NCBI GenBank assembly: GCA_038040175.1
Contig: JBBPIT010000008.1
Location: 2,184 to 66,183 of the forward strand
Reading direction: 5' to 3'
Length of the DNA: 64,000 bases
From: Pseudomonadota bacterium
GTDB lineage: Bacteria; Pseudomonadota; Gammaproteobacteria; Burkholderiales; JACQAP01
Part shown: positions 10,442-14,445 of the stretch, piece by piece
How positions within the stretch are numbered: position 1 is the first letter of the stretch
Layout of the letters: the number at the start of each line of letters is the position of its first letter
Made by a program: the position numbers and the translations under genes
Notes under the pieces: generated by a model
What the model saw: the letters and a program-made list of their open reading frames with translations, nothing else
Database searches by the model: none
What the model was told of the DNA's origin: nothing

Positions 10442-11579
10442 GCTCGCCTCAACTGCCACGTCCCCATGGCTCAATTTACGCAAACGATTGTGTACGAAGC
10501 AGAAATCGAGGTCAAACTTCCCCCAATCTCGTGGACTCGCTTCGGCTCCCGGATCGGTTCGAGCACCGCACACGAACTTCCGCTTTGGCTTACGGCTGGG
10601 TGGCGCCGATCTACGACTGGTTCACCGAAGAATATGACATCGCCGACCCGCAGGACGCCAAGGCGTTTCGCTGCGAGCCGGGGTGGCTTTATCTGGCAGA
10701 GCGTCGAATGTCATCGGGTCACTTGCCGAACTGTCTTGAACCGGCCAAGAGCAGACATTGCCAATCCGGCACGTCTTTGCCGAAACGGCAAACACAAAGG
10801 GCGCGACTCGCGTCACGCCCTTTGTGGTTTGCTTCGGCGCTCCGGTCGAGATAACCCTCAAACATCGGGTTTAAGGTGGTCGCCGCCCGTCCGCATCAGG
10901 CACACCAGAACGAAATGGCGCGCGCAACAGCGAATGTCTTGGGCAACAACCGGATCGTCATGCCTTGGGCTTGAGAATCTACCCCGGTCCAGCGCGCGGA
11001 AGCGAATCCAGTGAGCCCCCTTCGTCCGTCAAAGTCAAGGGACTTCTGCACCTTTTCCAGAATTGTAACCGCGCGCATTTCACCGAGTACACCCGGCGCA
11101 CGGCAGCTCGACTCCCGATTGTCGCGAACTGCCATCGCGTTGAGGTGACCGGCCCCGATGCTCGGTGACCGCTCAAGGAAGGCTACCGATTTTTCGGCAC
11201 CCTGGTTGCATACGGCCAAAAGAAGACGGTCGAGTATTTCCCCCATAGCAGTCACTCGATCACGTTATTGGTCGGCTGAGGTGCCGACGCCGGCAGACCG
11301 CATGAACCTGGCCCATCAGACGCGGCGACGGTGTTGCTTTGAGGGGTTGGCTAATCGGACCCCATAAGTGTCACTCCTTGTTGAGGGTTTAAGCCTCCAC
11401 AGGACTCTGGCATCATCGACCAGTACTATCATTACAAATGCGGACAGACATCCTCGGAGCACCCACAATTAATCAAGCAGTTTTTGCGCGTCGGCACGTT
11501 CTGCGAATTTCAACACTCCTGACCGGCCGGTCTGGTGAATAACTGTTAGACCGCACAGCTGCTGCGGTGGTAGGGGCTC

Positions 11580-12521
11580 ATGACCATTTTGCCGTTATCG
11601 GAAGCATGGCCCACCCTATCTCTGGAGGGTTGGAGAGATACGTACGCAACATTGCACATGTGGCTCCAGATCGTCGGCAAGATTCGCCTCGCGAAAAGCC
11701 CCTGGGTGAACCATTCCTGGCACGTCACGCTTTACGTGACGTCGAGGGGGCTGACGACGGGGCCGGTCCCGTATGGAAACCGAACATTTCACATCCACTT
11801 CGACTTCATGAACCATGAGTTGACTGTGCAGTCGAGTGACGGCCTCAGCGGTCGGGTCGTGCTCCAACCACAGTCAGTGGCGACGTTCTATGCGAGTCTC
11901 ATGGCGGAGATGGAAAAGCTCGATCTGCACGTGAACATCTACCGCATGCCGAATGAAGTCCCCGACCCGATCCCATTCGCCGAGGATGAGACTCACCGCG
12001 CGTACGACGGAGAATATGCCAACCGCTTCTGGCGCATCCTCGTACAGGCCGATCGAATCTTTAAAACATTTCGTGCGCCCTTTACCGGCAAATGCAGCCC
12101 CGTTCACTTTTTCTGGGGCGCGGCAGACTTGGCCGTTACGCGGTTTTCCGGACGACGCGCGCCGAAACACCCCGGCGGCATTCCAAACCTCCCGGATTGG
12201 GTAACCCGAGAGGCTTACTCGGAAGAAGTCAGTAGTTGCGGATTCTGGCCGGGTGGTGGTCCGATCCCGTATGCTGCCTTCTATTCATATGCTTATCCGG
12301 AGCCGCCCAACTTCGCGGCGGCATCCGTGCAGCCGGGCGGAGCGTTCTACAGTAACGATTTGCACGAATTCATTCTTCCCTACGACATCGTCCGGGAATC
12401 AGAATCGCCGGACGACACACTTCTCCAATTCTTGCAGACCACCTACGCCGCCGCGGCCAATCTGTCCAAATGGGATCGCGGCTCTCTGGAGCGCGGGCAC
12501 GACCCGAAGAATGCGGTCTAA
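11580..12521 (+). CDS. DUF5996 family protein (function unknown)
   Basis: 313 aa with ...WRDTYATLHMWLQIVGKIRLAKSPWVNHSWHVTLYVTSRGLTT...GKCSPVHFFWGAADLAVTRFSGRRAP...EAYSEEVSSCGFWPG.., matching my memory of this conserved family. It lies in the AT-richer stretch. Confidence 0.8.
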   Translation: MTILPLSEAWPTLSLEGWRDTYATLHMWLQIVGKIRLAKSPWVNHSWHVTLYVTSRGLTTGPVPYGNRTFHIHFDFMNHELTVQSSDGLSGRVVLQPQSVATFYASLMAEMEKLDLHVNIYRMPNEVPDPIPFAEDETHRAYDGEYANRFWRILVQADRIFKTFRAPFTGKCSPVHFFWGAADLAVTRFSGRRAPKHPGGIPNLPDWVTREAYSEEVSSCGFWPGGGPIPYAAFYSYAYPEPPNFAAASVQPGGAFYSNDLHEFILPYDIVRESESPDDTLLQFLQTTYAAAANLSKWDRGSLERGHDPKNAV

Positions 12522-12797
12522 CTACGCGTTCGAGAGCGGACGCGCCATAGAGCGGCGCGCCGCTCAACGCGAACGTTGAGGCTGCAGAAAAAGTCCGAAG
12601 TCGATCGACACAAGAATTAGACGCGATATGAGCCGCGATTCGATAAGATTGGACTTTCGACGATCGACTGCACTGCGAACTCCCCGCAGAACGCATCGTC
12701 GAGCGTGGCAGCGGCAATATTTTCAGGCACCAACAAAATCGAGGTTGTTTCGTTGGACCATCAATCATGGTTGTTTTAGGGCTTTTTCTACAGCCTC

Positions 12798-12809
12798 GTT
12801 AGACGTCGC
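12798..12809. repeat. left half of a 12-bp perfect inverted repeat bracketing the 12821..13924 gene
   Basis: GTTAGACGTCGC ends 11 nt before the ATG. Its exact reverse complement is at 13927-13938. Confidence 0.9.
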
Positions 12810-12820
12810 CCAATACAACC

Positions 12821-13924
12821 ATGTCGTACTTCATTGATCTGTTCTCACCAGAAACGTACGAGGCTTTTGGTCGGTCGTCACAGGACGTGTCGGGTTTCCG
12901 CATGCGTCACAAGGGGATGGCCGAGCGCATCAAACCTGGTGACAACTTTGTCTGCTACCTGACGCGCGTATCGCGCTGGTGCGGGCTGCTGGAGGTCATC
13001 GAAGGACCCTTCATCGACAGCAAGCCGATCTTTGTTCCGGACAACGACCCCTTCGTCGTCCGGTTTCGCGTCCGGCCCAAGGTATGGCTGACCATCGATA
13101 AAGCACTACCAATTCATGACGACAAGATCTGGCAAGGTCTGTCGTTCACGCGCACCCTCGAGAAGGGATCTATCGCTTGGACGGGAAAGGTCCGAGGGAG
13201 CCTTGTGCGTCTAGACGACAAAGACGGCAAGTTTTTGGCCGACGCCTTGTCCGCCCAGGTCAAAGCACCGAATGTCTATGCCCTGGACGAACTGGACTTG
13301 AAGAAACTCACGACGCATACGGTCAATCGTTCTGACAAGGTGGTCAGCGTCTCGGTGCCTGAAGATACTCCCGTTCCAGAGGAGACAACGCCTCCGCAGG
13401 AAGCGGAATCGCGTGAGTCAATTCAAGTTCAGTCCCTGATAGCTCAGATCGGCGCTCGCATGGGAATGTCTATTTGGATACCACGCGCCGACCGGAGCGG
13501 CGTACTCCGGGAGTGGAAGAATGACCAGCAGCCACTTCTTGATCGCCTTCCGCTCAACTACGACGATACAACGCTGCGCACAATCGAGCAGATCGATGTC
13601 ATATGGTTGCGGGGTCGCTCAATCGTGCGAGCGTTCGAAGTCGAGCACACCACCGCCGTCTACTCCGGCATCTTACGGATGGCGGACCTCCTTGCGCTTC
13701 AACCGAACATGGACATCAAGCTTCACATTGTTGCGCCGGTAGCGAAGCGAGAAAAGGTATTTCAGGAGATTCGTCGCCCCGTCTTTTCCTTGCTTGAAAA
13801 GGGCCCTCTTTCTGAAAGTTGTACTTATGTCTCATACGATAGTCTGCGAGAGTTGTCATCACAAAAGCACCTTTCGCACCTCTCTGATACGGTACTCGAT
13901 GAGTACGCAGAAGAGGCGGAATGA
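12821..13924 (+). CDS. two-domain protein: N-terminal EVE/PUA-like domain, acidic Pro/Thr linker, C-terminal PD-(D/E)xK-like nuclease domain (candidate modification-dependent endonuclease)
   Basis: 367-aa ORF. The N-terminus MSYFIDLFSPETYEAF...RIKPGDNFVCYLTRVSRWCGLLEVIEGPF...VVRFRVRP resembles EVE/PUA-like barrels. The linker is VPEDTPVPEETTPPQEAESRES. The C-terminus has IDVIWL (D259) and AFEVEHTT (E273/E275) followed by YSGILRMADL. The ORF is clear; the domain calls are my pattern recognition only. Confidence 0.6.
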   Translation: MSYFIDLFSPETYEAFGRSSQDVSGFRMRHKGMAERIKPGDNFVCYLTRVSRWCGLLEVIEGPFIDSKPIFVPDNDPFVVRFRVRPKVWLTIDKALPIHDDKIWQGLSFTRTLEKGSIAWTGKVRGSLVRLDDKDGKFLADALSAQVKAPNVYALDELDLKKLTTHTVNRSDKVVSVSVPEDTPVPEETTPPQEAESRESIQVQSLIAQIGARMGMSIWIPRADRSGVLREWKNDQQPLLDRLPLNYDDTTLRTIEQIDVIWLRGRSIVRAFEVEHTTAVYSGILRMADLLALQPNMDIKLHIVAPVAKREKVFQEIRRPVFSLLEKGPLSESCTYVSYDSLRELSSQKHLSHLSDTVLDEYAEEAE

Positions 13925-13926
13925 AC

Positions 13927-13938
13927 GCGACGTCTAAC
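13927..13938. repeat. right half of the 12-bp perfect inverted repeat
   Basis: GCGACGTCTAAC starts 3 nt after the stop codon at 13922-13924. Confidence 0.9.
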
Positions 13939-14160
13939 CCTTTGTTTCTGCGGACAGGCCGCACGCGCTGTGCCAATTCAACCGTCGTCGTGGCCCGCCG
14001 CAGTACAATACGCAGAACAATACGTTGAACGTCCGCTTTGGAGAAAATTGACCACCCGGTTTGGGTCGTTTCCAGCCCCTCATATATATACGATCTAGGG
14101 TCGAATTGGTCACGGCTTCCACAAAACCCGGGCCAGTGCAGATGCTCTAACGCACCGGCT

Positions 14161-14445
14161 TCAGCCGGATTTCCCGTCTACCTTCGGCTTCTTCGGCGGC
14201 GTTTTTCTTGCCGATTCCTGGATCGTCTGCAAAGCCGATTTCTGCATCTCCAGGGTCTTCATGGTCATCTGCACGAAGGTCAGATTCATCTTCAGCCAGT
14301 TCTCGACCGACTGCAGCTCCGCGATCTTTTTCTCCACTTCCTCGATGCTCATGGTCGGCTGGAACATGCCGGGAATGGGGAACGACAGCGGATTCCACAT
14401 CTTCTGGAAGAACTCGAACAGCTCCTTGGAAGAATCTTCGGCCAT
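14161..14445 (-). CDS. PhaM-like PHA-granule associated protein (short form, Lys-rich tail)
   Basis: 94 aa, ...FFQKMWNPLSFPIPGMFQPTMSIEEVEKKIAELQSVENWLKMNL...KTPPKKPKVDGKSG. It resembles the PhaM-family N-terminal region with a basic C-terminus. Confidence 0.55.
   Translation of the reverse strand: MAEDSSKELFEFFQKMWNPLSFPIPGMFQPTMSIEEVEKKIAELQSVENWLKMNLTFVQMTMKTLEMQKSALQTIQESARKTPPKKPKVDGKSG

Follow-up and report, generated by a model that had tools for sequence, protein, structure and literature searches.

What does a gene encode that lies by itself between housekeeping genes, looks like a nuclease, and is enclosed by a perfect inverted repeat? The question arises from a stretch of 64,000 nucleotides (nt), hereafter the window, from a Pseudomonadota bacterium placed in the Burkholderiales (assembly GCA_038040175.1, contig JBBPIT010000008.1, positions 2,184 to 66,183), in which an open reading frame (ORF) at 12821..13924 on the forward strand encodes a protein of 367 amino acids (aa). 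An earlier reading of the letters alone, the original prediction, took this protein for a reader of modified bases fused to a nuclease, a candidate modification-dependent restriction or defence module. The computational evidence assembled here supports that reading, and we consider it reasonably probable that the product is a type IV restriction endonuclease, modification-dependent, made of a single polypeptide, and independent of nucleoside triphosphates (NTPs); from this assignment we infer nuclease activity, modification dependence, a cleavage geometry, and an anti-phage role. To the original prediction the analysis adds a family name for the nuclease, its modular partners, and an integron-cassette explanation of the repeat.

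The gene begins with an ATG whose product, M1, is common to all homologues in the alignment. The three-part organization proposed earlier held up in coordinates, translation, and predicted structure: an AlphaFold2 model of the full protein (mean predicted local distance difference test score, pLDDT, 81.9) comprises two confident domains, residues 1-164 and 195-367, separated by a stretch (165-194) with pLDDT <50 that is predicted to be disordered. We assign the first domain (12821..13312, +) to an EVE/YTH-like PUA fold, the intervening residues (13313..13402, +) to a connector and linker, and the second domain (13403..13921, +) to the NmeDI_C nucleases. Within the middle segment, residues 166-177 form a conserved beta-hairpin connector (THxVxRxDKxVxVxVPED), which relatives retain even where their N-terminal domains differ, and the acidic Pro/Thr linker comes after it. 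Separate profile and structure searches of the two halves, a check suggested with the original prediction, returned an EVE-like N-domain and an NmeDI_C C-domain with weak restriction-fold matches; that the protein combines an EVE reader with an NmeDI_C nuclease is, in our view, close to certain.

The N-terminal domain had been likened to EVE/PUA-type barrels from its strand pattern, and profile and structure comparisons bore this out. Direct searches were sub-threshold—15.0 bits (E=0.025) for aa 1-175 against Pfam EVE (PF01878; gathering cutoff 23) and E=4e-7, under its cutoff, for NCBIfam PRK00809—and homologues at 56-65% identity carry PF01878 in precomputed annotation. A single-sequence search of the PDB recovered PH1033/UPF0310 at E=4.7e-4, and a family profile built from 32 diverse full-length homologues matched PH1033 at E=5.6e-13 and MJECL36 at E=9.5e-13. 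Foldseek with the full model gave the same two proteins, PH1033 (1wmm; E=1.3e-7, template modelling (TM) score 0.76) and MJECL36 (2p5d), with TM scores of 0.72-0.76. The domain is modelled with pLDDT of about 80-97 as a PUA-like pseudobarrel, and its conserved positions include a PGD-x-hhh-Y motif (D41, Y46) and the aromatics F26, W53, F82, W104, and W120; these aromatics, together with T12, D41, and Y46, are compatible with a candidate base pocket. On homology and predicted fold, we therefore describe the domain as a PUA-fold reader of the EVE/YTH type.

Structural matches ranking below PH1033 and MJECL36 raise the question of whether the reader might recognize RNA rather than DNA. They comprise YTH readers of N6-methyladenosine (m6A), VcaM4I (rank 30), and THYN1 bound to 5-methylcytosine (5mC) DNA, with the m6A-RNA-binding YTH domains outranking the other two. 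The protein could then be an RNA-directed or abortive-infection nuclease, in which the domain would read a modified base in tRNA, rRNA, or a phage transcript and the nuclease would be turned loose on RNA, or on nucleic acids of every kind, so that the infected cell is killed or arrested; source annotations reading 'predicted RNA-binding protein' and the frequency of toxin–antitoxin (TA) modules among the neighbours of homologues also fit. We regard this as unlikely, however: the nuclease is homologous to an enzyme that restricts double-stranded DNA, the reader is replaced in relatives by Mrr_N, with which type IV enzymes sense DNA modification, and the nuclease-fused EVE domain binds modified DNA in the sole solved case.

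For the C-terminal domain, which the original prediction could not match to a named family, such a family is now available. An identical protein (P0001) bears PF27126 (NmeDI_C) in precomputed annotation, and the PADLOC model PDLC03534 (REase_II) matches aa 198-328 at E=1.1e-14 over profile positions 176-324 of 351, the model having the length of NmeDI. Our own searches of the domain against Pfam and NCBIfam gave no match, PF27126 being newer than the Pfam release searched, and neither did sequence and profile searches of the PDB. The three acidic residues singled out beforehand are conserved: across 32 homologues at 32-58% identity, D259 (codon 13595-13597) is invariant, with conservation of at least 90% at E273 (13637-13639) and E275 (13643-13645), and in 53 closer homologues the two glutamates are invariant as well. 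R286 and D289 are likewise invariant. Since Foldseek with the whole model gave N-domain matches only, aa 192-367 were modelled separately (pLDDT 82, predicted TM score 0.79). The resulting topology is alpha-beta-beta-beta-alpha-beta, where D259 opens beta2 and E273-x-E275 lies on beta3, in the predicted core and at the catalytic-strand positions that had been proposed. Glu in place of Lys at the third motif position we take to be a BamHI-like variant. The top PDB matches of this model were all restriction-fold proteins (EcoO109I, the BspD6I small subunit, Can2, PaqCI, SgrAI, McrC, and Mus81), and a search of viral structures returned only uncharacterized proteins, at E >=0.008. The earlier description of the domain as PD-(D/E)xK-like finds support in NmeDI homology and topology, and less in the structural matches, all at E >=0.04; we make a tentative restriction-fold assignment mainly from topology, motif placement, and homology to NmeDI.

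R.NmeDI of Neisseria meningitidis, an experimentally verified endonuclease of 351 aa, cleaves on both sides of its recognition sequence, RCCGGY, at a fixed distance of 12/7 nt (PMC2095814), and because it cuts in this way, the shared domain is plausibly, by analogy, a cleave-at-a-distance module. The same kinship suggests another reading, that of a selfish nuclease gene or a type II-like orphan endonuclease specific for a sequence, which the N-domain would read as the N-half of NmeDI does. Such an enzyme would agree with the specificity of NmeDI, the sole characterized relative of the C-domain, and with the label 'type II' on the PADLOC model. It is nonetheless highly improbable, as no cognate methyltransferase adjoins the gene here or consistently elsewhere, a lack that would make a type II enzyme lethal, and the N-domain, with its EVE fold, is unrelated to the N-half of NmeDI, of which only profile positions 176-324 are matched.

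Relatives of the protein show that the nuclease is combined with more than one N-terminal domain. With E up to 1e-3 accepted, an exhaustive homologue search returned 2442 representative clusters; a large number of these match only aa ~165-367 and have other N-termini. In two relatives (L070 and P0157), the same connector, acidic linker, and nuclease follow Mrr_N (E=1.7e-32), a winged-helix domain that serves the type IV enzyme Mrr as its sensor; modification-dependent restriction enzymes characteristically exchange sensors while the nuclease stays constant (PMC6765204, PMC12191111). Mrr_N was the only alternative partner identified by Pfam and NCBIfam, and at least three further N-terminal families precede the connector and nuclease without a match in either. 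These include N-domains of 130-290 aa (in P0152, P0178/P0207, P0197/P0210, and P0150), which on sequence grounds are candidate new sensors of DNA modification or DNA sequence. A separate oddity is a 328-aa protein (P0133) in which a tyrosine-recombinase-like C-terminal fragment is joined to the connector and nuclease; this may be an artefact of gene calling or assembly at a recombination site, or a true fusion. More speculatively, the connector and NmeDI_C could form a general plug-in cleavage module whose partners include new classes of modified-base sensor, the EVE version (~80% identity) reading a widespread phage modification new to EVE domains, such as a 6mA-type (N6-methyladenine) or hypermodified base; we hold this extension to be doubtful as it stands.

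The family comprises more than 5700 clusters at 90% identity and has a patchy distribution that takes in Nitrospirota, Acidobacteriota, Pseudomonadota (Gallionella, Rudaea, Snodgrassella, Gilliamella, Paraburkholderia, and Bradyrhizobium), Chloroflexota, Planctomycetota, Bacillota, and one Hadesarchaea metagenome-assembled genome. The archaeal copy (L032, 8000-9100) is a full-length homologue at 66% identity, reflecting either inter-domain transfer or binning contamination. The top 120 relatives share 77-86% identity and are nearly all 367 aa long. Recent horizontal transfer as the cause of this ~80% cross-phylum identity is ruled out by saturated synonymous sites (pS 0.75-0.86, with dN 0.10-0.19), and dN/dS is 0.07 against the closest relative (L006); judged by these substitution patterns, the gene is functional and under strong purifying selection. 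Selection of this unusual strength and a length fixed across many phyla might instead indicate a DNA-damage or repair nuclease, whose reader would see a damaged or non-canonical base and incise nearby in the service of maintenance rather than defence, and some copies do lie between housekeeping genes. We consider a repair role very unlikely given the patchy distribution, the foreign codon composition, the cassette and defence-island settings, in which no repair partner is conserved, and the sensor-domain swapping typical of restriction enzymes.

The neighbourhoods of homologues, whose inspection had been proposed as a check, vary by locus, and no partner gene is conserved among them. Nearby genes encode a KAP NTPase, an HNH protein, an MmeI-type restriction-modification (R-M) enzyme, and a PLD-SNF2 helicase in one locus (L001); an nSTAND protein and a Gp49/helix-turn-helix pair in another (L002); Rep, MazE-PIN, and an integrase in L003-L005; AbiEii, an Eco57I-type methyltransferase, and helicases in L089 and L090; and RadC with a PIN-type TA pair in L091. 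In L087, the setting is one of small-ORF islets between housekeeping genes. The 120 ORFs directly flanking 30 family members matched 356 PADLOC models and 100 ORFs lying 5.5-8 kb away in the same loci matched 39, counts that are semi-quantitative, as redundant models inflate both. Homologues thus occupy variable islands rich in defence and mobile-element genes, not a conserved housekeeping operon. In two bee-gut bacteria, Snodgrassella and Schmidhempelia (L034 and L041), the family gene sits beside large genes of type I R-M systems, the flanking set having PADLOC matches to MTase_I, REase_I, and Specificity_I; this echoes an association between EVE and type I R-M noted by Bell et al. 2020 (PMC7641849).

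How did the gene come to lie where it does? The original prediction had remarked on an AT-richer islet, and GC content is indeed 0.53-0.58 over ~11.2-14.8 kb versus 0.62-0.68 on either side. GC content at third codon positions (GC3) is 0.65 in the EVE-nuclease gene versus 0.82-0.86 in resident genes, which marks it as foreign to this genome. Its neighbours are a DUF5996 gene upstream (11580-12521; Pfam E=6.5e-142) and, on the opposite strand downstream, a gene for a PhaM-family regulator of polyhydroxyalkanoate granules (NCBIfam E=1.4e-22); as first reported, no methyltransferase, ATPase, or helicase adjoins the gene in the window. The absence of a visible Shine-Dalgarno sequence was likewise confirmed by inspection of the leader (CGCCCAATACAACC-ATG), which has no purine-rich stretch, and no sigma-70-like promoter was found.

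The perfect inverted repeat that brackets the gene had been noticed but left unexplained. Its arms, GTTAGACGTCGC (12798-12809) and GCGACGTCTAAC (13927-13938), are 12 nt long and 100% complementary, a match expected by chance between two 40-nt flanks with a probability of about 5e-5, and nucleotide homology to at least eight independent loci starts at 12797-12801 and ends at 13937-13940, at the outer edges of the arms. We read the arms as an R'/R'' pair. The left arm (12798..12809, +) consists of the 5' cassette boundary G/TTAGAC, a remnant of R' that fits the GTTRRRY core site cut between G and TT, followed by GTCGC; the right arm (13927..13938, +) consists of GCGAC and the inverse core site R'', GTCTAAC (RYYYAAC), with which an attC-like site begins (13932..14030, +; GTCTAAC-CCTTT-GTT[T]CTGC...GCAGAAC-AATAC-GTTGAAC, in R''/L''-bulge/L'/R' grammar). 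GTTAGAC thus stands 23 nt upstream of the ATG and GTCTAAC 8 nt past the stop codon. The 64 kb contain just two copies of each heptamer, GTTAGAC at 11545 and 12798 and GTCTAAC at 12516 and 13932, alternating around the DUF5996 and EVE-nuclease genes, so that a co-oriented DUF5996 cassette (11545..12581, +) can be delimited ahead of ours by GTTAGAC (11545-11551), the gene itself, GTCTAAC (12516-12522), and a hairpin.

Other members of the family carry the same signals. In the clade of at least 70% identity, GTTAG lies 9-35 nt upstream of the ATG in 9 of 24 loci (background 0.011, p=2e-12) and CTAAC at most 25 nt past the stop in 10 of 29 (background 0.007, p=3e-15); the motifs are at the gene ends in none of the more distant members. 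The repeat arms covary among loci picked for having the motif, with 85% of cells paired (shuffles 75%, 0/500) and changes on both sides in 7 of 12 pairs; that covariation reaches 5 nt past the R box may reflect selection on the excised circular cassette. Canonical attC hairpins, with paired R''/R', an unpaired spacer, and a bulged base in the R''/L'' arm, lie downstream of the gene in L010, L014, and L070, and L073 and L018 contain arrays of co-oriented attC sites. In L070, the Mrr_N relative is the first cassette beside an integron integrase that is truncated and shares 48% identity with IntI1 (TIGR02249 E=1e-67, 228.6 bits versus a cutoff of 265). A scan for attC box grammar with one mismatch allowed lacked specificity, giving 70 sites versus ~47 in shuffles (1.16 Mb), and only zero-mismatch matches and positional enrichment were used. 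Two other approaches were abandoned: a generic AAC...GTT hairpin scan with constrained folding was non-specific (3 in 7 kb versus 1-6 in shuffles) and missed the candidate, and an attC covariance model was dropped as MAFFT could not align the variable sites in structural register.

Two observations at the locus itself count against a cassette origin. The attC-like site at 13932-14030 obeys the box grammar with zero stem mismatches, but its folding energy is no better than that of shuffles (z=-0.84), and no IntI-like sequence was found in the window by tblastn with an approximate query. With the perfect 12-nt repeat placed exactly at the ends of the conserved unit, they would suit the termini of a transposon-like element (a passenger cassette of the miniature inverted-repeat transposable element (MITE) or mobile insertion cassette (MIC) type) or of an invertible segment. 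That origin is scarcely probable to us: the arms fit GTTRRRY and RYYYAAC, the canonical sites with a bulged base, the arrays, and the integrase described above belong to integrons, and a target-site duplication is absent, the flanks reading ...AGCCTC before the unit and CCTTTG... after it. We therefore conclude that the gene very likely originates as an integron gene cassette, which explains the absent promoter, the AT-richer islet, and the inverted repeat together. The simplest reading of the window is a two-cassette attC cluster without integrase, possibly decaying, between resident genes, and the attC-like site at 13932-14030 has probably decayed.

Several features around the cassettes deserve mention in their own right. 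A 12-nt tandem duplication (CGCAGTACAATA / CGCAGAACAATA, 13999-14022) falls within the L' arm of the attC-like site and may contribute to its poor folding. For the DUF5996 gene, GTTAGAC lies 35 nt before the ATG, GTCTAAC overlaps the stop codon, and the attC-like hairpin spans 66 nt and ends in GTTGAGG (12575-12581), with z=-2.81 and an equally good fold in 1 of 200 shuffles. At the DUF5996 boundary, position 11544, homology to L021 begins, and L021 has a DUF5996 gene 81% identical to this one, ~7 kb from its own EVE-nuclease gene and without GTTAGAC upstream. Between the two cassettes, an ORF-less segment of 223 nt (12576-12798) has ends (12578-12599 and 12776-12797) complementary over 22 nt at 86%; this segment may represent an attC that is very long or hybrid, or else an empty cassette that recombination left behind, and does not match the canonical attC layout. 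The leader between cassette boundary and ATG (12810-12820, with equivalents in L007-L015) is A/C-rich, nearly free of G, and devoid of a Shine-Dalgarno sequence, as seen in the cassette-borne clade (CCCAATACAACC, CAAAACACGCTC, CAGAACACAACG, CAAACGAAC, and AAAAAGAAC); such G-poor leaders hint at Shine-Dalgarno-independent initiation, perhaps workable in many hosts. The PhaM-family ORF (14161-14445, −; 94 aa) scores above its NCBIfam cutoff, has a host-like GC3 of 0.82, and marks the resident-genome edge of the islet; a Pfam match of this ORF to Cap4_nuclease (E=0.005) was dismissed as spurious. Elsewhere, an acidobacterial locus (L016) contains a cluster of tandem ~74-nt palindromic repeats (11209-11434; …GGGAACAATGCCCGGACGG…CCGGGCATTGTTCC…) ~2 kb downstream of the family gene, which the attC scan picked up and which are not canonical attC sites.

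Taken as a type IV restriction endonuclease, the protein would work as follows. The EVE/YTH-like domain would bind DNA and flip a modified base into its conserved pocket, precedents being bases of the 5mC/5-hydroxymethylcytosine (5hmC) or 6mA type. NmeDI_C, as a restriction-fold nuclease with a D...ExE metal site, would then cut the DNA away from the bound base, probably as a dimer, with the acidic linker as a flexible tether. Host DNA without the modification would be spared, hence no methyltransferase would be needed, and modified phage DNA would be the most likely target. The gene itself would travel as a promoterless integron cassette, from G/TTAGAC at 12798 to the attC beginning with GTCTAAC at 13932. 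What is observed agrees with type IV enzymes in that sensor and nuclease share one chain, no methyltransferase adjoins, and neighbours differ between loci. Against the proposal weigh several points. The closest relatives of the N-domain, PH1033/UPF0310 and YTH proteins, are mostly regarded as RNA binders; the putative active site D...ExE is a variant of the PD-(D/E)xK motif and not the canonical D...ExK; the C-domain structural matches are weak (best E=0.042, probability 0.93-0.96, TM about 0.4); very strong cross-phylum conservation is unusual for a gene in an arms race; and expression at this locus may be poor, given no visible promoter or Shine-Dalgarno sequence. No experimental work on the EVE-NmeDI_C family was found in the searchable literature, papers on END nucleases and winged-helix fusions having been set aside as concerning different families.

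If the proposal is correct, this would be the first characterized EVE-NmeDI_C enzyme, from a family of thousands in soil and freshwater bacteria, and a new reader-cutter pairing among modification-dependent enzymes with possible use in mapping modified bases. The C-terminal half of NmeDI would be a portable distance-cutting module, its N-terminal partners would be candidate new modified-base sensors, and the role of integrons as banks of defence genes would extend from clinical and Vibrio integrons to environmental phyla.

Both central concepts, EVE-PD(D/E)XK enzymes and integron defence cassettes, are already published. Bell, Wolf & Koonin 2020 (PMC7641849) list EVE-PD(D/E)XK fusions among predicted type IV enzymes, and our protein shares with that class the EVE reader, the restriction-fold nuclease, and the presumed modification-dependent logic without a methyltransferase; their treatment is computational and broad, and NmeDI_C with its hairpin connector and D...ExE site, the cassettes, and the extreme conservation do not appear in the text searched. 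The EVE-HNH modification-dependent endonucleases, known from biochemical and structural characterization and including VcaM4I and TspA15I (PMC7897488, PMC6765204), have the same order of N-terminal EVE, linker, and C-terminal nuclease, and enzymes of the VcaM4I type are single NTP-independent chains whose EVE domain flips 5mC or 5hmC into a hydrophobic pocket (PMC7897488). VcaM4I is itself among the structural matches of our N-domain, which is nonetheless nearer to PH1033/UPF0310 and YTH than to the VcaM4I EVE; these enzymes also differ in having an HNH nuclease rather than NmeDI_C and an autoinhibitory helix linker in place of the disordered acidic linker predicted here. With NmeDI, the protein has in common a homologous C-terminal nuclease domain, but NmeDI reads RCCGGY with an unrelated N-half and has a cognate methyltransferase, whereas here an EVE reader is present and a methyltransferase is not. 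Enzymes of the MspJI family join an SRA-like reader to a PD-(D/E)xK nuclease in a single chain and cut away from the modified base. MspJI and Mrr (Mrr_N plus Mrr_cat) resemble our protein as single-chain fusions of a reader and a restriction-fold nuclease, and differ in both reader (SRA-like rather than EVE, for MspJI) and nuclease family; Mrr is linked to it further by the two relatives, L070 and P0157, that fuse the Mrr_N sensor to the NmeDI_C nuclease. Finally, phage-defence integron cassettes (BRiCs) are described from mobile and Vibrio chromosomal integrons (bioRxiv 10.1101/2024.07.02.601719; PMC12614218), and an EVE-nuclease cassette is not mentioned in the BRiC texts searched. Like BRiCs, it would confer a compact, promoterless, single-gene defence function contained within GTTRRRY and attC, with homologues also found outside integrons without attC sites; unlike them, it circulates in environmental Nitrospirota, Acidobacteriota, Pseudomonadota, and others.

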